Shown here: in pieces, positions 4,405 through 41,511 of the stretch | How positions within the stretch are numbered: position 1 is the stretch's first letter | Layout: each line of letters starts with the position of its first letter | Source: Candidatus Nomurabacteria bacterium RIFCSPLOWO2_01_FULL_41_18 | Lineage (GTDB): Bacteria; Patescibacteriota; Minisyncoccia; Phycocordibacterales; UBA9973 | Direction: 5' to 3' | Length of the DNA stretch: 64,000 nucleotides | Assembly (NCBI GenBank): GCA_001785865.1 | Contig: MFUZ01000009.1 | Coordinates: 15,309-79,308, forward strand | Made by a program: the position numbers and the translations under genes | Notes under the pieces: model-generated | What the model saw: the letters and a program-made list of their open reading frames with translations, nothing else | What the model was told of the DNA's origin: nothing | The model's database searches: none

Positions 4405-4495
4405 GCGCACTTTTTGAGAGGCCTTTCGCAGCGCGACGGCGCGAGAAGTTCGCTCCGCGAGCACGCGGAGATAGATTGCCTATCAAAAAGTGTGC
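4405..4495. repeat. Long-stem element with two-hairpin core (same core as pcrA insert)
   Basis: Arms GCGCACTTTTTGAGAGGC / GCCTATCAAAAAGTGTGC enclose CTTTCGCAG..CGACGG..CGAGA..CGCTC..AGCA..GAGA. Confidence 0.75.
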
Positions 4496-10861: not shown

Positions 10862-10945
10862 AAAATTAATATATGAGAAATTTTTGCGGATTTCTCCATC
10901 TGGTGATGGAACCTTCCCCGCCAAAATTTCTCATATTTTAATTTT
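10862..10945. repeat. Long-stem element with TTYCTCC-hairpin-GGAACCTTCC core
   Basis: 28-bp arms around TTTCTCCATCTGGTGATGGAACCTTCC; core recurs twice inside cca. Confidence 0.75.
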
Positions 10946-11217: not shown

Positions 11218-11335
11218 ACCCCGCATATTAGCATAAAGTAGCTAAAATTGCAACCTTCCCCTGTACCCCGTGATTATGTGTGAGCAAGCACTTTCTCATT
11301 ATAAAATATATTGTGCGACATGGTATAATTGGCAA

Positions 11336-12259
11336 ATGGCATCACTAAAGGAGCTAAAAAATCAATTCTTGGAATATGTGGAGATAGAAAAAGGCCGTGC
11401 TATCAGAACTGTAGAAAATTACGACCACTATCTGACTGTATTTCTCGAGCAAACAAAAATTACCGACCCAAAAAATATTACGGATGAAAAAGTTCGAGAT
11501 TTCCGTATTTGGCTCAATCGCCAGACGACTGGGAACAACCGCGCCACCGGAGACACGATAAAAAAGAAAACCCAGAATTATTATATGATTGCTCTGCGAA
11601 GTTTTCTCAAATTCCTAGCAAAAAGAAGCATCGCTTCTCTTCCCGCTGACCATATAGAACTTGCAAAAGTCGGTGAAAGACAAATCGACGTAATTTCGCA
11701 AGAGGAATTGAAAAGACTTTTGGATGCTCCTAACAAAGAAAAAAACTTGGAAAGGTGTGCGCGTGATAAAGCGATCATGGAAATGCTTTTCTCTACGGGT
11801 CTGCGTGTTTCAGAACTTTGTTCACTAAAAAATGACTTAGACTTGCATCTAGATGAATTCTCTATTAGGGGGAAGGGTGGCAAAGTGCGAGTTGTTTTCC
11901 TATCCGACGAGGCAAAAAAATCTGTTAAAGAATATTTATCGATTCGCAAAGATATATCAGACGCTCTTTTTGTGAAACTAAGCGATGAAATTTCAAAAAA
12001 AGAAACAACTGAAGGGCTCACTCGCCGTTCAATAGAAAGAATCGTAAAGAGGTATGCCACTATCGCCGGAATATCTAAAAAGGTAACCCCGCACGTGATT
12101 CGTCACGTTTTTGCCACCGACCTCCTATCAAATGGCGCAGATATCCGCTCCGTACAAGCCATGCTCGGCCATGCCAACATCGGCACCACACAGATATATA
12201 CGCACGTTACAGACAAACATTTGCGGGATATACATAAGAAGTTTCATAATAAAAATTAA
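11336..12259 (+). CDS. XerC/XerD-like tyrosine recombinase
   Basis: TGLRVSEL, PHVIRH, LGHANIGTTQIY; ATG 6 nt after TGgTATAAT. Confidence 0.93.
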   Translation: MASLKELKNQFLEYVEIEKGRAIRTVENYDHYLTVFLEQTKITDPKNITDEKVRDFRIWLNRQTTGNNRATGDTIKKKTQNYYMIALRSFLKFLAKRSIASLPADHIELAKVGERQIDVISQEELKRLLDAPNKEKNLERCARDKAIMEMLFSTGLRVSELCSLKNDLDLHLDEFSIRGKGGKVRVVFLSDEAKKSVKEYLSIRKDISDALFVKLSDEISKKETTEGLTRRSIERIVKRYATIAGISKKVTPHVIRHVFATDLLSNGADIRSVQAMLGHANIGTTQIYTHVTDKHLRDIHKKFHNKN

Positions 12260-12389: not shown

Positions 12390-12737
12390 TTAGTCTCTAA
12401 ATAACTCCCTGATTTCCTTAAAAAAGGAATAAAGGCTATCAAAGTCTTGGAGGCTGGGCAACCCTTCTGCTCTCAAAACTTTGTCTATCTCCGCGATATT
12501 TTCTTCTCCGACACAAGACTCGAGTTGATCTTGTCCGGATAGATTGGTATTCTCCTTGTACAACTCCCAAAAATATCGCACCCTTCTGTCCGCCAGTTCA
12601 GCAACAATGCCCGCGTTTTTAGGATTGTGAAGAATCTGTTTTTGGAAGTTTCCAGATTGGGAATACCATATCTGTTCTTCCAACTTTTCCCTAATTTTTT
12701 CCGGCTCCCACAAGAGTTCTTGTTTTTCTTTCTTCAT
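12390..12737 (-). CDS. Hypothetical protein
   Basis: 115 aa, preceded by AAAGGA. Confidence 0.65.
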   Translation of the reverse strand: MKKEKQELLWEPEKIREKLEEQIWYSQSGNFQKQILHNPKNAGIVAELADRRVRYFWELYKENTNLSGQDQLESCVGEENIAEIDKVLRAEGLPSLQDFDSLYSFFKEIRELFRD

Positions 12738-18214: not shown

Positions 18215-19894
18215 ATGCAAAAAAATTGCCAAACATGTAACAAAGAGTTCGAAATAAGAAAGGATGATTTGATTTTTTACGATCAAGTAAAAACCGCTCC
18301 CCCAGAGGACTGCCCCGACTGCCGAGCGATGCGTCGCCTTGCTTTCCGCAATGAGCGAACTTTCTACAAAAGGCCTTGCGATCTTTGCAAGAAGGATATG
18401 ATTTCTCTCTATACGACCAATTCTCCTTACACGGTGTATTGCCACGAATGCTGGTGGAGCGATAAATGGGATCCTAAAAATTTCGCCCAAGATTACGATC
18501 CCAATAAAACATTTTTTGAACAATATGGAGAATTGCAAAAGAAAGTCCCAAGATTGTCTTTGATGATGATCAACTCCGTACGGAGCGAATATACAAACGG
18601 TGCAGCCGACAATAAAGATTGCTATCTCATCTTTGCAGCAGATGGCAACCAAGATTGCCTATACGGGAGATTGGTCCAAAGATCAAAAAACTGCGTCGAT
18701 TGTGCTTTTATCTACGATTCAGAATTATGCTACGAGTGCATCGATACTCATGAATCCTTTAAATGTATGTATTCCGAACAATGCACCGCCTCGAGCGATC
18801 TCTTATTCTGCTACAACATGCGCAACTCAAATAATTGTATTTTTTGCGTCAATGGAAGAAATATTTCTAACGCGATTTTAAATGTAAAATATTCAAGAGA
18901 AGAGTTTGAGAAAAAGAAAAAAGAACTCCTGTCCAGCTATGAAAACATCGAAAAAGCAAAGAAAGAATTTACAGAATTAAAAAACAAGACAATCGTTAAA
19001 TACTCTGCGCAAGTAAAATGTCACAACATTACGGGCGACCATCTATACAATTGCTATGACGGGATACGAGCATTCGATAGTTCGAGCGCAAAAAATTCTT
19101 CCTACATCGCTGACGCCGAGGACTCTATCGATTGCATGGATTTGAACAATTGTTATTACAAGCCCGAACTTTGTTACAACATGATGGGTGTCTTGCAAAG
19201 CAGTAAATGTAAAAACGGTGCTTTCGTATTTTATTGCAATGAAGTTGAATATTCTGAAAATTGCCACAATGTGACGAGTGCCATCGGGTGCAACGCTATA
19301 CGCAAGGGTCAGTATATGATTTTCAATAAAGAGTATTCAAAAGAAGATTTTTACAAAATCAAAGAACAAATCGATGCACAGATGAAAAAAGATGGAACTT
19401 ACGGACAATTTTTCCCGCCAGAGCTCGCCCCTTTTGGCTTTAATGAAACTCTGGGAAATGATTATTATCCACTTACCAAAAAGGAAGCAGAAGAAAAAGG
19501 TTTCAAATGGCAAGATCAAACTACTGGCACATACGGAAAAGAAACAATCAAAGAAAATGAAATTCCGGAGACCATTACTGAGGTCACAGAAGATATTTTA
19601 AATGAAATTTTGGTTTGCAAGGACTGCAAAAAGAATTTCCGTATCACTCAATCAGAGTTGGATTTCTACAAGAGGATGAACATTCCTCTCCCGCACAAAG
19701 ACTTTGAATGCCGACACCGTGACAGAATGAAGAAGCGCAATCCTCGCAAGCTTTGGCCTCGTTTCTGTATGTGTAAACTAAAAACTCATCAACACGGCAC
19801 AGAAAAATGTGAAAACGAATTCGAAACCTCCTACTCCCCCGACAGACCCGAGATAGTTTACTGCGAAAAGTGTTATCAACAGGAAGTTTCCTAG
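18215..19894 (+). CDS. Large cysteine-rich zinc-ribbon protein (CPR-type, function unknown)
   Basis: Multiple CxxC, WWSDKWDP, RNPRKLWPR, IVYCEKCY. Confidence 0.88.
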   Translation: MQKNCQTCNKEFEIRKDDLIFYDQVKTAPPEDCPDCRAMRRLAFRNERTFYKRPCDLCKKDMISLYTTNSPYTVYCHECWWSDKWDPKNFAQDYDPNKTFFEQYGELQKKVPRLSLMMINSVRSEYTNGAADNKDCYLIFAADGNQDCLYGRLVQRSKNCVDCAFIYDSELCYECIDTHESFKCMYSEQCTASSDLLFCYNMRNSNNCIFCVNGRNISNAILNVKYSREEFEKKKKELLSSYENIEKAKKEFTELKNKTIVKYSAQVKCHNITGDHLYNCYDGIRAFDSSSAKNSSYIADAEDSIDCMDLNNCYYKPELCYNMMGVLQSSKCKNGAFVFYCNEVEYSENCHNVTSAIGCNAIRKGQYMIFNKEYSKEDFYKIKEQIDAQMKKDGTYGQFFPPELAPFGFNETLGNDYYPLTKKEAEEKGFKWQDQTTGTYGKETIKENEIPETITEVTEDILNEILVCKDCKKNFRITQSELDFYKRMNIPLPHKDFECRHRDRMKKRNPRKLWPRFCMCKLKTHQHGTEKCENEFETSYSPDRPEIVYCEKCYQQEVS

Positions 19895-21657
19895 TTATTT
19901 TTTCGTACTCCGTGTTTAGTGTGCAATTTTTCTATTTCTTTTTCTTCAAGTTCTTCTTTTTTTTCTTTTCCTTTATCTCCAAGCGCCTTTAGTTCTTTAT
20001 CATCAAGTTTATCCATAGATTTTACCAACTCTGACAACTTTTCTACAGTATTTTTCTTTGGATCTTCTAAAACTTCTTCCAATAACGCACTTAAAATCCA
20101 CCCCATGCGGGGTCCAGGCTTGATTCCGAGCTTGTGTATCATAAATTCTCCGTTTATTTTTAATTGGCCGACGGAAATAGGGTCTCGCAGTGCCTCTTCT
20201 ATCATGGCAAAATACTTCCGCAGTCGATACGGAGCTTCTTTTTTCTTCATCCCTACCCTATCACATTCCCTTACTTTCATTAAATCCCAAATTGGATGAT
20301 CTTTATTTTCTTTTTTATCCGCCAAAGCTTTAGCGTCGGCGGGGCCAACTTTTGTAATGATTCTACGCACTGCAGAAAGTGTAATTAGCTCCGTATCAGA
20401 GAAAAACATATGATTGCGGACGAGTTTTTCCACAAGATCAGTTTCCTTTTTTGGAAATCTCAGCCTCTCCATTATTTTTTTTGCCATCCGCGCCCCAATA
20501 ACTTCATGGCCGTAAAAAGTGTATTTCTTTTTGCTTCTCGCTGGAAATAAATTCTTTGACATTCCTCCAGTCTCCGACTGGAACCTTCCGTCTGCAGAAT
20601 TTTTTTTCCGCTCCGAAGCAGGTTTAGGGAGATTCTTCACGCGGAAGGTTCCGCCCGAAGGGTGGAGGAAAGCGGAAGAATTTTCCTGAACCTGCGAAAC
20701 ATCTCTGCGACTTTTTGGCTTTCCAATATCGTGGAAAAGCGCAGAAAGCCTTATTTCTAAAGGCCAGTTTTTGTCGGCAGCGTGCTGGAGAGCATGCAAT
20801 AAATGTTCCCAAACATCATAAATGTGCTCCCCTAATTGTTCGCACTTTATCCCCTCCTCTAATTCTGGAATAATATTTTTTAGCAATCCGAATTTTTGCA
20901 GCATCACGATTCCGCTCGCAGGATTTTTCGACAAAATTATTTTTATAAACTCGTCGCGAATTCTTTCCGGAGAAATATTTTTTATCAAGTCCGCATTTTT
21001 AAAAATGCTTTCTGCAGTTTCTGATGAAATAGAAAAATTTAATTGTATCGCAAACCTCACCGCCCGCAACATTCGGAGTGCATCTTCTTTAAAACGATCA
21101 CCTCCTTCCCCTACTGTCCTCAATGTCTTGTCCTTTATGTCCTTTATACCATTAAACATATCTACGAGATGTCCTTTAGAATTTAAAGCGAGGGCGTTGA
21201 CCGTAAAGTCACGTCTTTTAAGATCATCTTCTAGCTTATCACTAAATTTCACCTCATCAGGATGTCTAAAATCGCTATATTTTGCTTCAATTCTATATGG
21301 GGTGACTTCCACAATGGTGGTTGTTTCTCCTACCAACACTGAAGCTTTTGTGGACAAGTGTGAAACACTATCAATTGTGGTTTCACGGGAAACTACCACT
21401 CCCACTGTGCCAAAAGTATTCTCATACACAGTCTTCTTGAAAAGTTTAATGATTTCTTCTGGTTTAGCATTGGTTGTGACATCCCAATCTTTAGGTTCCC
21501 TTCCTCCTTCGGCTCCGCTCAGGATCTGCGACATCATAAGATCTCTTACACATCCACCCACCAAATATGCTTCAAAACCAGCTTGCTCAAGGGCATCTGT
21601 TACATGTGAAACAGTTTTTGGTATTTTTTCTATTAAGTTTTTATATTGACTGTTCAA
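19891..21657 (-). CDS. cca: CCA tRNA nucleotidyltransferase with HD domain
   Basis: VGGCVRD, DWD, RRDFTVNA, EDALRMLR, HDIGK. Confidence 0.95.
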   Translation of the reverse strand: MNSQYKNLIEKIPKTVSHVTDALEQAGFEAYLVGGCVRDLMMSQILSGAEGGREPKDWDVTTNAKPEEIIKLFKKTVYENTFGTVGVVVSRETTIDSVSHLSTKASVLVGETTTIVEVTPYRIEAKYSDFRHPDEVKFSDKLEDDLKRRDFTVNALALNSKGHLVDMFNGIKDIKDKTLRTVGEGGDRFKEDALRMLRAVRFAIQLNFSISSETAESIFKNADLIKNISPERIRDEFIKIILSKNPASGIVMLQKFGLLKNIIPELEEGIKCEQLGEHIYDVWEHLLHALQHAADKNWPLEIRLSALFHDIGKPKSRRDVSQVQENSSAFLHPSGGTFRVKNLPKPASERKKNSADGRFQSETGGMSKNLFPARSKKKYTFYGHEVIGARMAKKIMERLRFPKKETDLVEKLVRNHMFFSDTELITLSAVRRIITKVGPADAKALADKKENKDHPIWDLMKVRECDRVGMKKKEAPYRLRKYFAMIEEALRDPISVGQLKINGEFMIHKLGIKPGPRMGWILSALLEEVLEDPKKNTVEKLSELVKSMDKLDDKELKALGDKGKEKKEELEEKEIEKLHTKHGVRKNN

Positions 21658-29750: not shown

Positions 29751-31817
29751 GTGACTACCGAGGGAGAGCATCTAGAAGGACTAAATAGCGAACAGAGAGA
29801 AGCGGCAATTCATACGAATGGTCCGCTTCTTATCATCGCGGGGGCAGGCGCCGGAAAAACAAAGACGATAACGCACCGGATCGTGAATCTGATAAAAAAT
29901 GGTGTTTTACCGGAGCGGATTTTGGCTGTCACCTTCACCAACAAAGCGGCTAAAGAAATGCGGGAACGGATCATTGCAGAAATCAAAAAAAATACCAATG
30001 GGATTCACGGGCAAGATGGGGTTCCTTTCGTTTCTACATTTCACTCTTTAGGAGTTTACATAATAAAAGAGCATGCGAAGCTGCTCGGACTGACTAGGTA
30101 TTTCACTATCTTGGACGAAGGAGATGCAACCTCACTCATAAAAACAATACTCAAAGATATCGGCATAGACCCAAAACAATACGATCCGAAGAAAATAAAA
30201 AACATTATTTCGAGAGAGAAGGGCAAATTTGTACAGATTGCGAACTATACCGAGAGGGAAGGAGCCAATTCTCTTGCAAAAATAGTGGCACAAGTTTGGA
30301 GCCTGTATGAAAAGCAAAAAATGAAAGAAAACTCACTCGATTTTGATGATTTACTTTTGAAAGCGACAAGATTATTGAAAGAAAATCCTGAAATCAGAAA
30401 AATATATCAAGAAAAATGGGAATACATCCACGTTGATGAGTATCAAGACACAAATGAAGTACAGTATTTAATGTGCCAAATGCTTGCAGATAATAACAAA
30501 AATATTTGTGTCGTGGGGGACGCGGATCAGAACATTTATTCATGGCGCGGGGCAAATTTAAAAAATATCTTGAGTTTTGAGAAAGATTATCCGGATGCAA
30601 AGATAGTTTTATTGGAGCAAAATTACCGATCGACCCAGAATATCCTCGAGGCCGCCAATGTGGTGATCAAGAAAAATAAATTCCGGCCGGACAAGAACCT
30701 CTTCACCAAGAATGAGAAAGGGGAGAAGATCGGATTGTATGAAGCATTGGATGAAAACGATGAGGCAGAATTTGTGGTGACAAAAATTTTAGAAATCCTG
30801 GACGGTAAAGCGAATGTACCTCGGCAGGGTCTCTCGCAGGCCGACGGGCCGAGAGGGAGCGCTCTGTCAGCAGACAGAGACAGCGACCCTGTCGAGGTAA
30901 CATACGCTTTAAAGTCCGAGAATATCTTGTCCGAAGTCGCAGTACTCTACCGCGCCAATTTCCAATCTCGCGCACTGGAAGAAACAATGCTCAAATACAA
31001 CATTCCATATCAAGTTCTTGGGGTTAAATTTTTCGAACGAAAGGAAATAAAAGACACCCTCGCCTATTTGAGAGCAGCTTTGAACAAAGATAGCTTGTCC
31101 GATATTAAAAGGGTCATCAACTTTCCGGCGCGGGGAATCGGCAAAGTCACTTTGCTTAAAATTTTTGCCAACGAGACAGAAACCCTGCCGATAAAAGTGA
31201 AAATAAAGATAAATAATTTTTATCAGACCCTAGAAGATATCAAGGAAAAGATTGCAAGCCTGAAAACCAGTGAAGTAATAAAATTTGTATTGAAAAAGTC
31301 CGGCATAGAAAACGAACTTTCTTCCGGCACAGAGGAAGATGCGGAAAGGCTCGAAAACATAAAAGAGCTTGCGACGCTGGCGCTCAAATACGACAGTCTC
31401 GAAGCCGGCCGGGGGGTAGAAAAGCTTCTCGAAGACGCGTCCCTGGCCTCCGACCAGGACAGCATTATGATCAATGAAAGCCACAAGGAAGAAAAGATAA
31501 ATGGTGTAAAACTCATGACTGTACACGCTGCCAAAGGGCTCGAGTTCAAGTATGTCTTCATCACTGGACTCGAAGACGGCCTTTTTCCTCACGAGCGGCA
31601 CGGCGAAGGGGAGAGCATCGACCATGAAGAAGAACGCCGGCTTTTCTATGTGGCAGTCACTCGCGCCCGGAGCAAACTTTTTCTCTCCTTTGCAAATTTC
31701 CGCACCATCTTTGGATCACGCAATATGAATGCTCCATCAGAATTCATAGCTGATGTGCCCACAGACCTGCTTGAAAAAGAAGGCGAAGATAGTAGAATAA
31801 AAACCATCTATATATGA
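29751..31817 (+). CDS. pcrA: PcrA/UvrD helicase
   Basis: AGAGAGKT, VDEYQD, EERRLFYVAVTRA; GTG 6 nt after TGgTATATT. Confidence 0.96.
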   Translation: MTTEGEHLEGLNSEQREAAIHTNGPLLIIAGAGAGKTKTITHRIVNLIKNGVLPERILAVTFTNKAAKEMRERIIAEIKKNTNGIHGQDGVPFVSTFHSLGVYIIKEHAKLLGLTRYFTILDEGDATSLIKTILKDIGIDPKQYDPKKIKNIISREKGKFVQIANYTEREGANSLAKIVAQVWSLYEKQKMKENSLDFDDLLLKATRLLKENPEIRKIYQEKWEYIHVDEYQDTNEVQYLMCQMLADNNKNICVVGDADQNIYSWRGANLKNILSFEKDYPDAKIVLLEQNYRSTQNILEAANVVIKKNKFRPDKNLFTKNEKGEKIGLYEALDENDEAEFVVTKILEILDGKANVPRQGLSQADGPRGSALSADRDSDPVEVTYALKSENILSEVAVLYRANFQSRALEETMLKYNIPYQVLGVKFFERKEIKDTLAYLRAALNKDSLSDIKRVINFPARGIGKVTLLKIFANETETLPIKVKIKINNFYQTLEDIKEKIASLKTSEVIKFVLKKSGIENELSSGTEEDAERLENIKELATLALKYDSLEAGRGVEKLLEDASLASDQDSIMINESHKEEKINGVKLMTVHAAKGLEFKYVFITGLEDGLFPHERHGEGESIDHEEERRLFYVAVTRARSKLFLSFANFRTIFGSRNMNAPSEFIADVPTDLLEKEGEDSRIKTIYI

Positions 31818-31932
31818 TCCCGAACGAAATCGCGGACGCATAAAAGAAATAAACTATAATTTTCATGAAAAATAAAATCACAAAATTAGAAATAAGACAT
31901 CAGCGTACGCGTCCTATTTCGTACGGGATGAT
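31814..31932. mobile_element. MITE-like insertion with 5-bp direct repeat at the pcrA/rsmA junction
   Basis: ATCCCGAACGAAAT...ATTTCGTACGGGAT (13/14 inverted match); ATGAT on both sides of CCCG...CGGG. Confidence 0.7.
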
Positions 31933-32707
31933 CTATAAAGCTAAAAAATCACTAGGACAGAACTTCTTGAAATCGGAAATAGCCCTCCGACAAATTATCG
32001 AAGCGGGAGAGATAAGATCCGATGATATAATTCTAGAAATAGGGCCGGGTAAGGGAGCGCTCACATCCAAGCTTCTAGCTTCTAGCTCTAAGTTGATAGC
32101 TGTAGAAAAAGACAGAGAACTTCTTGAATTTCTTAAAACAAAATTTGAAAAAGAAATCGCATCTGGGCAATTGGAATTAGTACAGGGAGACATTTTAGAA
32201 TTTAATGCTAGTGCCTACAGCCTAAAGCCCAGCGCCTATAAAATCATAGCCAATATTCCCTACAATATCACCGGTGCAATATTGAAAAAATTTTTAACTG
32301 AAAAAAAACAGCCAGAAGCGATGGTGCTCATGGTTCAACACGAAGTGGCCACCAGGATTCTCGCGAGAGACGGCAAAGAGAGCATCTTGTCGGTATCGGT
32401 CAAGGCTTACGGCAATCCAAAGATGGTGGCGAAGGTTGATAAAAGATATTTTTCACCGGCGCCAAAAGTAAATTCAGCAATCATTTCCATAAAAAAAATA
32501 TCTCGCCAAACTTTTCAGGAAAATAACGTGAACGAAGAAAAATTTTGGGAAATAGTAAAAGCCGGCTTTGCCCACAAGAGAAAAAAGCTCTCTTCTAACC
32601 TAAAAGCTGTGTGTCAAAGGGACACTTTAACATCTTTAGGAAATAAAAGGGCTGAAGATTTGACGCTTTCGGACTGGATAGAGCTTTGCACTGAAAATAC
32701 TAGATGA
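31928..32707 (+). CDS. rsmA: 16S rRNA adenine dimethyltransferase
   Basis: KKSLGQNFL, EIGPGKG, ANIPY; start revised from 31865. Confidence 0.96.
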   Translation: MIYKAKKSLGQNFLKSEIALRQIIEAGEIRSDDIILEIGPGKGALTSKLLASSSKLIAVEKDRELLEFLKTKFEKEIASGQLELVQGDILEFNASAYSLKPSAYKIIANIPYNITGAILKKFLTEKKQPEAMVLMVQHEVATRILARDGKESILSVSVKAYGNPKMVAKVDKRYFSPAPKVNSAIISIKKISRQTFQENNVNEEKFWEIVKAGFAHKRKKLSSNLKAVCQRDTLTSLGNKRAEDLTLSDWIELCTENTR

Positions 32708-35005: not shown

Positions 35006-37222
35006 ATGATAGCTAAAAATAAAATAACAAAACTCATTTCCGCTTTCTTAATTATTTCAATATTGTTGCCTAATGTTTTATTTTCTAAACCACAACCAGT
35101 AGAAGCTCAAGGACAAGTACCAGTTTTGGACGCTGCCGCTGCAAAGATTCTCGGTACAATTGCAGGCAACGCTAGCTCCCTCAATCTTACGAGCTTAAAA
35201 GATTGGGCAGTATATATCGGTAAAGAGTTACTCAAAGTAGCTGCAAAAAGACTGTTGGCAAAAATGACCCAAGCCACGATCAACTGGATAAACTCGGACT
35301 TCCACGGCGCTCCGCTCTTCTTGGAAAATCCAGAATCTTTCTTTAGAGACATAGCAAAATCAGAAATCAGAAACTTGGTGGACATGATCGGTTATGATAC
35401 TTTCAGGTTCCCATTCGGCAAACAGACGGCGCTCAACGTGATAAGCAGCTATAAGAGCCAGCTCGAAACCAACGCTCAATATTCTTTGAGCAAGGTGATA
35501 AATGATCCGGACCTCTTAGTGCGTTACAGAAATGATTTCAATTATGGAGGATGGAATGGATTTCTCATAAATACCCAGTATCCGCAAAATAATTACCTCG
35601 GATTCCAAATGATAATACAGCAAAACTTGGCTAGCAGGCTACAGGGGACACTGCAAGCTCCAGCGGAAAAAGTCCAAAGCTTGCTCCAGCAGGGAATGGG
35701 CTTTTTGTCTCCGCAATCTTGCCCTTCAAATCCTGCATACAACAATGGTACAAATGAATTTCAACGACCGAGCTATAAATCAATACCTTACACAAACTAT
35801 GAAGTAGAACCCACTTATAATCCGAATGTAGGTAGCGAAGAATACATCGCAGAACACGGCGATGGGCGTCCCACTCCGACCAATCAAGCAGAAATAGATA
35901 TGGCTCGCGAGCGATGGAATGCAGACAACGCGTTGTATAAAGCAGACTGGGAAAGGACAAATACTTGCCCCGGTGGTTTGCAGGCCACTACCCCCGGCTC
36001 GGTGGCAGCAAATCAAATATTTAACGCGCTTGATACTCCTAGAGAATCAACAACACTCGCTGGAGCATTGGGTAATAGTGTGGTAGATAGTGTAGGCGCT
36101 ATTTTTGACGCTCTGATAAACCACTTTTTAGACAAAGGCTTGACTGCACTCGCGAGCACAGTAAGTTCATCATCAGGAGGAGACAATTGGAGTTATAACG
36201 GTCAGACTCTTGATGGCTCGACGCCATCCGGCACGCCTACGGCTTTGAACATACCGCAAAATGTTTCAGTTACAGTAGGACAGACGGCTAGTACCACTAT
36301 ATCTGGTGGAACTGCGCCTTACAGTATTCAGACACAACCCAATATAAGTGTAGCCACTGCCCGAATTGACTTTACCGGCTCTGGGAATCCTACCCTTACA
36401 GTCACTGGTATTACGCCGGGTCAAACTTTTGTGACAGTTCAAGATTCTTCAACACCTTCTAAAACTGTTGCGGTTCAGATTGCAATAAATGCAATTGGAG
36501 CTTTAGTGATAAACCCACACAATATTTTGACAAATACGAACGACACAGTTGTAGCGACAATATCCGGTGGCCAAGAACCCTATTTCATACAAACACCCCC
36601 AAATCAAGCAGTAGCGATAGTTTCCTTGTCGAGCACAGGATTGATTGTATCTGGCATTGGAGCAGGTCAGACTTCTGTGGTGGTGAGAGATTCATCAACA
36701 CCAGTAAAAACTACGATCGCTCAAATCACGACAAATGGCACAGTTAATTTAGTTGTTCCAGATGTTTCAGTTGCAGTGGGACAAACGACCAACACAACTA
36801 TATCTGGTGGTGTGGCCCCTTATAGTGTTGAAACTCAAAATTTTACATCGGCAAATGTCAGAATTGAAGGTTCGACTCTTATAGTTACTGGTATCACGCC
36901 AGGACAAATAGTCCTGGTGGTAGAAGATTCATCTACAAAACTTACTACAACCAATGTTACAATAAGTGACAACAGATTTTTGACGGTTAATCCTGAAGAC
37001 GTTTCACTGACTATGGGTCACACAACGAACGCAACTATATCTGGTGGTGTGGCCCCTTATAGTATCAAGACAGCGCCGAGAGCAGACAGAGCAACTGCGC
37101 AAATTACTAATAGTAGCCTAAAAATAACAGCTGGCACAAATGATGGTAGAACTTATCTTATAATACAAGATTCATCCACGCCAAATCCTCAGACTTTCAG
37201 AGTTAATATTACATTGCGGTAA
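35006..37222 (+). CDS. Secreted T4SS-cluster protein with four Ig-like repeats
   Basis: Signal peptide; WINSDFHGAP motif; ISGGxxPY four times. Confidence 0.82.
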   Translation: MIAKNKITKLISAFLIISILLPNVLFSKPQPVEAQGQVPVLDAAAAKILGTIAGNASSLNLTSLKDWAVYIGKELLKVAAKRLLAKMTQATINWINSDFHGAPLFLENPESFFRDIAKSEIRNLVDMIGYDTFRFPFGKQTALNVISSYKSQLETNAQYSLSKVINDPDLLVRYRNDFNYGGWNGFLINTQYPQNNYLGFQMIIQQNLASRLQGTLQAPAEKVQSLLQQGMGFLSPQSCPSNPAYNNGTNEFQRPSYKSIPYTNYEVEPTYNPNVGSEEYIAEHGDGRPTPTNQAEIDMARERWNADNALYKADWERTNTCPGGLQATTPGSVAANQIFNALDTPRESTTLAGALGNSVVDSVGAIFDALINHFLDKGLTALASTVSSSSGGDNWSYNGQTLDGSTPSGTPTALNIPQNVSVTVGQTASTTISGGTAPYSIQTQPNISVATARIDFTGSGNPTLTVTGITPGQTFVTVQDSSTPSKTVAVQIAINAIGALVINPHNILTNTNDTVVATISGGQEPYFIQTPPNQAVAIVSLSSTGLIVSGIGAGQTSVVVRDSSTPVKTTIAQITTNGTVNLVVPDVSVAVGQTTNTTISGGVAPYSVETQNFTSANVRIEGSTLIVTGITPGQIVLVVEDSSTKLTTTNVTISDNRFLTVNPEDVSLTMGHTTNATISGGVAPYSIKTAPRADRATAQITNSSLKITAGTNDGRTYLIIQDSSTPNPQTFRVNITLR

Positions 37223-39850: not shown

Positions 39851-40948
39851 ATGGACCAAAAAGAATTACAAAAACAAATAGCTCTCTTTTATTCCAGGCT
39901 CCCGCCAAACGCGCAGGCACTGTTCTCCAGCATGGAGTGGCTGGAAACTCTTAAAAAAATCAGCCAGAAATATAAGCTGACCGACGAGCAGATAGAAACT
40001 CTCGGCACCGAGACCACTCTTGCGCTCCTCGGCATCATTCATTTGGTGGAGTACGAAGAAGCTCTCACGAATGAGCTTCGCTTGCCAAGAAATTTAATGG
40101 ATAAAATGATGTTAGAAATAGAAGAAACCATCATCAAGACCATCCGCCCGCAATTAGTCGAAGCTTTCGAAGCCAATAAAAATTCCGAAACAGGGGAGAG
40201 CCCTGACATTGAATCAAAGTTGGATGAACGATTTGAAAGACTGCCGAAAGAAACTCAAAATATCGTCCTAGAGTCGAAATATCGAACCATTCTTTACAAC
40301 ATCGCAAGATCGTACAACCTGAATGTGGAGCAAACAGGCATCCTCGAGTCAGCTGCAACCAGTTTGGTTACTGGAGCAATTCGTCCAGAGGAATTCGAAA
40401 ATTCTCTAAATAAAAATCTAAGATTGCCGTCTGAAACGATAAAAAAAATAGTAAGTGAAATCAGCGAGAAGATCTTTAAAAAAATAAGGGAAGAGTTGGT
40501 CAAGAACACAGGGAAAAAACCTCCTAGTCTTGATTACCCCGCAGAAGACATCGTACCAGTAGCCCCACCTACAACTTCAACTGCTTCGGAAAAAGCTACA
40601 AAAGAAGATTCTTCCATCCTGACTTCGGCTGGGATAGAAATCGTGCCGGAAAAATTAGAATTAGAGCCCGCAGAAAAGCCGTTAGAAAAAAGAGAGGAAA
40701 TGCTCCAAAAAATAGAGAAGCCCGAACCTCCTCTACCTCCTTTGGCAAAGATGCCCACAATAGAACATACGGAAAATGCTCCTACAACTCCCGTGATTCA
40801 TCCGATCTTGGCGCAAAAGTTGTCTGGCCCATTAAAGATCCCGATGACGAAAACAGAGCATTCTTTAGACAACATCACCAAAACCAACACTCCACCGCCC
40901 CAAGATACAGCCAAAAAAATAGATCCATACCGAGAAATACCGGAGTAG
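39851..40948 (+). CDS. Hypothetical protein, two helical repeats plus DPYREIPE tail
   Basis: 365 aa; duplicated RLP..Q...I...Y.L..EQ module. Confidence 0.82.
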   Translation: MDQKELQKQIALFYSRLPPNAQALFSSMEWLETLKKISQKYKLTDEQIETLGTETTLALLGIIHLVEYEEALTNELRLPRNLMDKMMLEIEETIIKTIRPQLVEAFEANKNSETGESPDIESKLDERFERLPKETQNIVLESKYRTILYNIARSYNLNVEQTGILESAATSLVTGAIRPEEFENSLNKNLRLPSETIKKIVSEISEKIFKKIREELVKNTGKKPPSLDYPAEDIVPVAPPTTSTASEKATKEDSSILTSAGIEIVPEKLELEPAEKPLEKREEMLQKIEKPEPPLPPLAKMPTIEHTENAPTTPVIHPILAQKLSGPLKIPMTKTEHSLDNITKTNTPPPQDTAKKIDPYREIPE

Positions 40949-40953
40949 CTGTC

Positions 40954-41086
40954 ATGCAATCCCGTTAGAGATCAGATAGTTTATTGTTTTAGTTAATGTT
41001 AAAATTATTATTGTGGTTAATGTAATTAATAGTCTTTAATCTAGGTACGGAAATCTTAAGATTTCCTATCTCTAACGGGATGCAGT
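40954..41086. mobile_element. MITE-like insertion at the start of the PrgI gene
   Basis: Perfect 14-bp inverted repeats ATCCCGTTAGAGAT (40959) / ATCTCTAACGGGAT (41068); flanks ATGCAAT / ATGCAGT. Confidence 0.75.
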
Positions 41087-41511
41087 TTAAAGTACCACAA
41101 TTCTTAGACATAGAGGACAAGATATTTGGCCCATTTACTTTTAAAGAGTTTGTGTATTTGGCAGGCGGGGCGGGCTTGTGTTTTGTGCTTTATAAATTAT
41201 TGGGGTTAATCCTCGGAGCTATACCTATCTTGGCAGTAGCCACCCTCGCCGTAGCCCTCGCCCGCTATAAGCCAAACAACAAGCCTTTTATCAATATGAT
41301 CGAATCGGCTTTCAATTATTTTCTTACAAGCAAGCTCTACATCTGGAAAAGGCGTAAGAATACGGCCAAGAATGACAAATTAGAAAAGGAAAATGACACC
41401 AAAAAGAGAGAAGATATGAGAGATTCTGTCCGGCTGGGGAGAAATAAATTGCGAGACCTGGCTTGGAGCCTTGATGTATTAGACCTAAGCAAACACGGAG
41501 AAAATAAATAA
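41080..41511 (+). CDS. PrgI-family (VirB3-like) protein
   Basis: VPQFLDIEDKIFGPFTFKEF plus two TM segments. Confidence 0.9.
   Translation: MQFKVPQFLDIEDKIFGPFTFKEFVYLAGGAGLCFVLYKLLGLILGAIPILAVATLAVALARYKPNNKPFINMIESAFNYFLTSKLYIWKRRKNTAKNDKLEKENDTKKREDMRDSVRLGRNKLRDLAWSLDVLDLSKHGENK

Follow-up and report, generated by a model that had tools for sequence, protein, structure and literature searches.

Palindromic elements with a conserved centre and site-specific arms inside protein-coding genes of Candidatus Nomurabacteria

To our knowledge, the spread and in-frame landing of short repeats of the kind represented by Rickettsia palindromic elements (RPE) and REP sequences have been an open question for two decades, and we know of no cognate enzyme for RPE. 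REP and REPIN sequences are extragenic hairpins with a GTAG or CGTC foot that are associated with the RAYT (TnpA-REP) HUH transposase; integron attC sites lie between cassettes, are conserved at their outer ends and variable inside, and are used by the integron integrase. RPE (Ogata 2000, 2002, as summarised in PMC10969869) are elements of about 150 bp that fall into several families and often lie in frame within unrelated housekeeping genes. Prokaryotic MITEs, as presented in PMC3184786 and PMC10969869, are non-autonomous elements of less than 200 bp that form a long stem-loop and can give rise to in-frame gene fusions; their defining features are terminal inverted repeats, conserved on either side of a core, and target duplications. 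Template switching, according to PMC8604942 and PMC5941160, homogenises the arms of inverted repeats and inverts the spacers between them. Here we describe an AATT-core family (hereafter family A), a real and, as far as searched, previously undescribed repeat family whose palindromic elements lie mostly inside genes and are built inside-out; a search of the literature outside subscription papers returned no paper on it.

The window (the whole stretch of DNA analysed, 64,000 nt) is derived from Candidatus Nomurabacteria bacterium RIFCSPLOWO2_01_FULL_41_18 (contig MFUZ01000009.1, positions 15,309-79,308), whose 750 kb genome is labelled G000. A sequence-only reading had placed a conserved core at 10891-10917, at 20562-20589 and, reversed, at 20643-20670, and all three are present there: the core pattern has three matches in the window vs none in each of 100 dinucleotide shuffles, and each match is inside a long hairpin with z-scores of -3.2 to -8.6 (DNA) and -2.8 to -8.1 (RNA). 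The extent of the core had been underestimated, as the conserved unit runs over 52 nt from AATT to AATT. That reading was also correct in its claims that the inner mini-hairpin differs in sequence among the three cores and stays paired, and that the intergenic core lies within a different 28-bp stem, the arms of which measure 28 nt and are 93% complementary. This intergenic copy (whole hairpin 10862..10945, plus strand) is located between a small upstream gene, which we take to be rpsO from its sequence, and an NYN-domain gene; its conserved unit, as read from the sequence, comprises AATT, a core of 42 nt (2 nt shorter than that of the coding copies), and AATT (10879..10928, plus strand). A XerC/D-type tyrosine recombinase gene is found at 11270-12259, 325 nt from the intergenic copy.

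The other two copies are located within cca (19891..21657, minus strand; 588 aa, frame open), a member of the CCA-adding enzyme / poly(A) polymerase family with an HD domain. Its domains are a poly(A) polymerase head and the HD domain, its closest solved structures are CCA-adding enzymes, and residues H285, H309, D310, H384, H416, and D466 of the HD domain are invariant in 59/59 aligned sequences. The hotspot loop, defined by allele comparison, spans residues 314-379 (20521..20718, minus strand). About 55 extra residues had been proposed between HDIGK and TFYGHE; the insert is real and, because the loop comprises 66 residues vs 11-19 (mode 15) in short alleles, the excess is 47-55, making 55 an upper bound. 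It had further been attributed to two adjoining long hairpins, which are indeed present, one of them (20533-20619) with imperfect, bulged arms. Copy 1, the first in the reading direction, has 12-nt arms and reads QVQENSSAFLHPSGGTFRVKNLPKP (whole hairpin 20619..20694, minus strand); its conserved unit consists of AATT, a 44-nt core, and AATC, with TTCCTCC..GGAACCTTCC on the minus (sense) strand (20631..20682, minus strand). Copy 2, opposed to copy 1, is the bulged hairpin and reads KKNSADGRFQSETGGMSKNLF in the gene (20533..20619, plus strand); its unit consists of AATT, a 44-nt core, and AATT, with TTCCTCC..GGAACCTTCC on the plus (antisense) strand (20550..20601, plus strand). A contig from run X13, which may stem from the same campaign, is identical over 20513-20706 and argues against an assembly artefact. 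The structure prediction that had been suggested as a check on the insert returns a disordered loop: in an AlphaFold model built on a 59-row alignment (mean pLDDT 84.6), the HD helices are confident, the loop has a pLDDT of approximately 40, and residues 330-372 are predicted to be disordered. The model has a second low-confidence loop at residues 94-110. In the N-terminal part of cca (approximately 21505-21535), a 9-residue insert, SQILSGAEG, derives from a smaller repeat, and a similar 27-nt insert is present in genome G222 and absent in G045.

A profile built from eight copies has ten matches in G000 at E < 1e-4, corresponding to nine full copies and one broken copy. Eight of the nine full copies are within long frames, which we read from their sequences as ligA, truB, pheS, pheT, purH, a methyltransferase gene, and cca (twice). 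The broken copy (contig C6, 162010-162073) is split by a nested CCCGCCTG..CAGGCGGG-type palindrome and adjoins a dprA-like gene. Genome-wide, G000 contains 60 long hairpins vs 3-4 in two triplet-shuffled controls, and these include several other core families. A scan of GTDB matched 88 stretches, 80 of which were examined, giving at least 84 further distinct family A copies in at least 27 genomes. The titles of carriers among the matches listed are Nomurabacteria, Paceibacterota, Minisyncoccia, Patescibacteria, 'Saccharibacteria', and 'bacterium'; one 'bacterium'-titled locus is placed inside the genus on the cca tree, and all carriers among the matches listed belong to the CPR by title or by tree. 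Among the matches listed, 77 of the 84 copies are in ORFs at approximately 18 sites (58 in sense and 19 in antisense orientation), and the remaining 7 are outside long frames. The strict core is found in 9 of 151 genomes of the genus, a tally that counts three unpublished genomes (G072, G135, and G143) on which no conclusion rests, and the reversed control gave no matches. Outside this group, no Rickettsia occurs among the 80 listed GTDB titles; Rfam 15 contains no matching family (the window gives only tRNAs, and the best score on the insert is 25.5 bits vs a threshold of 100); and among viruses and plasmids the full-pattern core has no matches and a BLAST search of phages and plasmids gave none. 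Eleven viral or plasmid matches to a short pattern, which have neither arms nor the AATT frame, were taken as chance, and two other cores gave one chance-like match and none in viruses and plasmids. The refuting outcome that had been proposed for the motif did not arise: its frequency is far above background, and it has flanking stems wherever it is found in these bacteria.

The layout of family A is arm, AATT, 44-nt structured core, AATT, and inverted arm, with a core of exactly 44 nt in 82/84 copies, inverted arms of 9-22 bp, and whole hairpins of 72-96 nt. On the strand reading GGAAGGTTCC (the GGAAGG strand), the core folds into a 3-bp helix followed by a purine-rich internal loop and then by an 8-bp helix that ends in a triloop, which is of GNA type in 72/82 copies even with the loop left free in the search pattern. 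GNA triloops are a stable DNA-type motif. Over 52 aligned copies, in which the search pattern fixed the invariant core columns and intact copies are over-represented, pairing holds in 95.9% of 1508 cells and 21 of 29 pairs change on both sides, values above those of 500/500 shuffles and of all slid controls. In the arms, positions 1-14 are Watson-Crick paired in 1047/1148 cells and pairing falls to background near 23-25 nt; beyond approximately 8 nt, the columns are almost devoid of sequence information. The fold of the GGAAGG strand is better than that of its complement in 75/82 copies with DNA parameters and in 80/82 with RNA parameters. Wobble pairs favour the same strand by 34 vs 14, a bias that arises from sense-oriented copies only and to which protein selection could contribute. 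All four doublets found are in opposed orientation.

Several of the sites occupied by family A are hotspots with turnover of hairpins. The cca gene is represented by 156 distinct alleles. Long alleles number 90, of which 10 carry family A and most of the others contain hairpins of other cores, belonging to more than ten families, with 18 left unclassified; the remaining 66 alleles are short. The same mix of alleles is found in pheS, pheT, ligA, purH, uvrC, mnmA, a gene for an FAD oxidase (fad), and an ACT-like gene, and the intergenic spacer is likewise a hotspot for other hairpin families (25/28 loci parsed). On a tree of cca flanks (107 alleles, after exclusion of 49 whose flanks were short; bootstrap still unsettled), the nine family A rows need eight changes, at least five of them forced, and are no more clustered than shuffles (113/500); the double copy in G137 lies apart from that in G000. 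Quick trees gave eight changes for 10 carriers in fad, five for 7 in mnmA, and three for 4 in uvrC, where the copies could also share a single origin. Two neighbours of 91% identity (L069 and L507) have different cores in the cca loop. Among the short alleles are some that resemble a collapsed hairpin or a lone arm, and short alleles may be scars of earlier elements.

The element in pcrA (30803-30913) has a different core, in which CGCAGGC..GCCGAG is common to two other G000 families, and the same core is found with other arms in the cca loop of L061 and L075. The proposal that this element and the cca copies follow one design, a conserved core within a copy-specific stem, is therefore supported, as is its extension to a general class of elements, given that more than ten cores occupy the same loops. 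What is shown for the pcrA-type element and the AATT-core family is a common design, which need not mean common ancestry; the nearest relatives of the 52-nt family are other AATT-framed cores, which are 38-61 nt long. An intergenic copy of a second core family, with four copies in G000, is located at 4405-4495 and has semi-conserved inner and variable outer arms. Hairpins with fixed ends (CCCGTACG / CCCGTTAG) and a variable interior occur at approximately 31800-31945 and 40945-41095 of the window and on contig C8 of G000 (12620-12710 and 36169-36248). These ends agree with the ones that bracket small GIY-YIG genes in G000; the hairpins are likely non-autonomous derivatives of these, with a design opposite to that of family A. 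At three G000 loci (L490, L494, and L496), partly duplicated tRNA 5' ends lie on either side of small GIY-YIG genes. Upstream of the methyltransferase gene (G000 contig C6, 275594-275633; L282, 2041-2084), perfect palindromes are centred on AATT-YYGC-ATAT-GCRR-AATT and have the appearance of AATT-framed elements that have collapsed. A further family of perfect palindromes, 30-38 nt long and based on TACGTAAT, is found in G000 at C2:39427, C3:26927, C5:6827, C6:187381, C6:252419, and C6:299161.

The arms behave differently from the core. In 26 pairs of copies from different sites with cores 0-1 nt apart, arm identity is 0.23 (23 pairs between genomes) and 0.30 (3 pairs within genomes), which equals background; the exception is a pair of sites in ligA of L316, where an arm identity of 0.7 reflects local duplication. 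In L036 (900-1950; G037 contig C68), a composite of family A and the second core family brackets efp as an inverted pair, the arms of which are nearly identical, and resembles a small composite transposon. Arms track the site, with an identity of 0.40 vs a permuted null of 0.30, kin not being independent in this comparison. That arms might instead be common within one genome was rejected, as their identity there is 0.28. The hairpin is larger than the net insertion in 35/41 copies relative to the median short allele and in 32/41 relative to the shortest. Stems extend at least 5 nt into host-conserved codons in 5/46 copies (null 0.27%), at two sites only, and at least 3 nt in 8/46 (null 3.8%); 27/46 never reach a conserved codon. 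In G000, the purH arm covers Ala-Asp-Leu (ADL) and the pheT arm Phe-Arg (F-R). At cca, codon 7 is covered by 21 of 57 measured hairpins; hairpins of seven label classes begin on the host consensus, which these covering hairpins mostly read, with Ala in 13/21 vs 24/33 short alleles. The scar-like appearance of short alleles weakens both the net-insertion and the cca codon 7 arguments. Similarity of arms to short alleles is weak (mean z of 0.6 on the left and 0.7 on the right), and no polarity of the host-like arm by element orientation was found; the unpublished genome G072 may be among the purH alleles in the net-insertion, arm-similarity, and conserved-codon counts.

AATT flanks the core as a direct repeat that could represent a target-site duplication, but empty AATT-centred palindromes are rare (2 of 145). 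Insertion into pre-existing AATT-centred palindromes was rejected as the usual route on this count. The closest filled and short cca alleles are 92% identical, and no junction is fixed because no near-identical filled/empty pair was found. Among the matches listed, every allele on the run contigs belonged to another species, and the clean junctions in three genome pairs were all of other families with fixed ends.

We consider it somewhat probable that family A is a non-autonomous mobile element that travels as a core, with polymerase template switching making or rewriting its arms at each site. This reading is built on the core anatomy with its covarying helices, the paired arms that track their site, the scattered occupancy, and the single reading frame described below; recognition of ssDNA, snap-back synthesis from the flank, and flips and collapse of the core are the steps that we infer. 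The travelling part would be the 52-nt AATT-core-AATT unit, and the long inverted arms would come from host flanking DNA. The strand reading GGAAGGTTCC would fold as ssDNA, presenting its GNA triloop and purine-rich internal loop, and a putative factor would recognise the fold. A nascent strand ending in an AATT-like host sequence would copy the core and fold back on its own AATT; the folded-back strand would then be extended by a reverse copy of 10-20 nt from its upstream flank before rejoining the chromosome, in some cases through a short stretch that matches conserved host codons. Through later template switches the arms would remain paired and the core would be inverted and reduced to scars; protein selection would keep only insertions in tolerant loops and in the frame in which an inverted polar segment stays polar. 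Snap-back synthesis as the insertion step itself, whereby an ssDNA core is written together with an inverted copy of its target (an inverted target-site duplication), is offered only tentatively and is the more doubtful part of this scheme. If it is true, it would be a new mode of DNA mobility and the route by which over ten core families of Nomurabacteria enter, invert within, and leave the same loops of proteins, with no transposase of a known family beside these core families; if arms are made at insertion, the insertion chemistry would involve an inverted rather than a direct target duplication.

An ordinary MITE- or RPE-like element that inserts with its own arms, which are later rewritten by template switching and drift, is in our estimation unlikely while retaining a real chance. 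Both arms would change together and extend a few bases into the flanks and the core would flip, so that old copies would come to look site-specific. The rewriting mechanism is documented (PMC8604942); the innermost 4-5 nt of each arm, next to AATT, show partial conservation, the local duplicates in ligA (L316) and around efp (L036) do have arms in common, and most stems end short of conserved codons. Four mnmA copies, two per orientation, fall within one supported group, the pattern that inheritance with flipping would give, and this counts against our preferred reading. Three same-family spacer copies (L629, L631, and L633) keep the length and ends of their arms and differ in the middle, which is still paired, as concerted change after insertion would give. 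Such an element accounts poorly for near-identical cores, expected to be recent relatives, that have unrelated arms in 26 pairs, and for the hairpin exceeding the net insertion in 35/41 copies, and the scattered cca carriers suggest many young copies. Nor is rewriting fast where orthologous copies can be compared: at L069 and L071, which carry another family at 92% flank identity, arms do not hypermutate, since only 1-2 uncompensated arm bases differ.

A host-maintained structural signal (a protein-binding ssDNA hairpin, an uptake or recombination signal, or an mRNA structure) that spreads between species as alleles, through recombination and not transposition, is improbable. Strong covariation in short internal helices does imply selection on shape, and the repeated use of a few loops and the position of intergenic copies near gene ends would be in keeping with a signal; a signal maintained by the host is, however, difficult to reconcile with a strict core in only 9 of the 151 genus genomes, with short alleles or other cores in the same loops, with both orientations inside genes, and with the presence of decayed and collapsed copies.

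In all 77 ORF copies, whichever way they are oriented, the AAT of AATT is a codon, vs 30% of AATT occurrences in G000 genes; L043, a locus outside this set, has a core 1 nt shorter and reads another frame. When polar host stretches were inverted in simulation, a stop-free product of low hydrophobicity was obtained in 44% of cases in the observed frame vs 5-20% in the others. The frame rule is thereby only partly explained, because the simulation predicts approximately two thirds of copies in the observed frame and not all. An RNA-level element, in which mini-intron excision or ribosome hopping between in-frame AAT codons would explain the rule, could draw on the matched in-frame AAT codons that flank the core 48 nt apart in 77/77 ORF copies and on the 64 of 71 related AATT-framed cores with lengths that keep the frame, but it is very improbable: the ORF copies are all stop-free and in frame, so that no removal is needed, both orientations are present, the GNA triloop is a DNA-type motif, Rfam contains no match, and the arms are shaped like translated polar peptides.

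A search for a mobilising gene in five carrier genomes found GIY-YIG genes in 5/5, Y1_Tnp in 3/5, and DUF559 in 3/5; neither Y1_Tnp nor DUF559 was found in G000, and no family A core was near GIY-YIG, Y1, or DUF559 genes at 28 loci (five carriers per gene family). Reverse transcriptase (RT) genes are present in 4/5 carriers, with no core near them at five loci. On contig C8 of G000 (1958-2593), an RT gene beside a small four-helix-bundle-like gene is apparently part of a diversity-generating retroelement. No sbcD was found over the cut-off in 5/5 carrier genomes, the only ones considered, which fits tolerance of long hairpins. That one arm is random DNA made at insertion by a template-free polymerase and then copied back, with an origin in neither element nor host, is highly unlikely, since near-identical cores with unrelated arms, the weak resemblance to short alleles, and RTs in four of five carriers are set against arms that track the site and overlap host-conserved codons beyond chance, and against transcriptases that appear to be of diversity-generating or intron type and have no core nearby.

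Family A yields sharp predictions, namely that the unit is defined at 52 nt, that one particular strand folds, that only one frame is tolerated, and that the arms match the flank at their site. Whether or not the arms are made at insertion, fast turnover of loop inserts of 15-25 residues is evident in streamlined CPR, affecting the CCA-adding enzyme, ligase, tRNA synthetases, and repair proteins, and this turnover bears on protein evolution, alignments, and marker-gene trees of the group. The sites of family A map positions in enzymes that are naturally tolerant of insertion.

Comparison with described systems shows partial likeness to each. Template-switch homogenisation fits the paired divergent arms, the flips of the core at a fixed register, and the creep into flanks, also in coding DNA; it is, however, a mutational process and not an element, and leaves a conserved core at new loci unexplained. 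Like attC, family A would form a sequence-variable, structure-conserved ssDNA hairpin with strand-specific unpaired features, but its outer ends vary and its copies lie inside housekeeping genes and not in cassette arrays. The imperfect bulged hairpin, likely read as ssDNA, and the opposed doublets (4/4) recall REP and REPIN sequences, from which family A differs in being mostly intragenic (7/84 copies outside long ORFs), in having no conserved GTAG or CGTC end tag in the 52-copy alignment, and in that no Y1 transposase was found in G000 and the Y1 genes of three carriers have no core nearby; strand asymmetry and the GNA loop are the features seen that would bear on recognition by an HUH enzyme. 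As in MITEs, family A is short, has no transposase gene, and folds into a long stem-loop (72-96 nt), but its design is the reverse, with ends that vary instead of conserved terminal repeats and a conserved centre; elements of the usual fixed-end kind do occur in the same genomes. The closest resemblance in habit is to RPE, which are likewise short palindromic repeats of several families, in frame in unrelated protein genes with a recurring peptide, in small-genome, host-dependent bacteria; kinship is not supported, given the lack of Rickettsia among the 80 listed titles and of an Rfam match. Unlike RPE of about 150 bp, family A measures 72-96 nt, conserves only its 52-nt centre, and has site-specific arms, and its loops are re-invaded by many families across species, with copies in one frame and both orientations.
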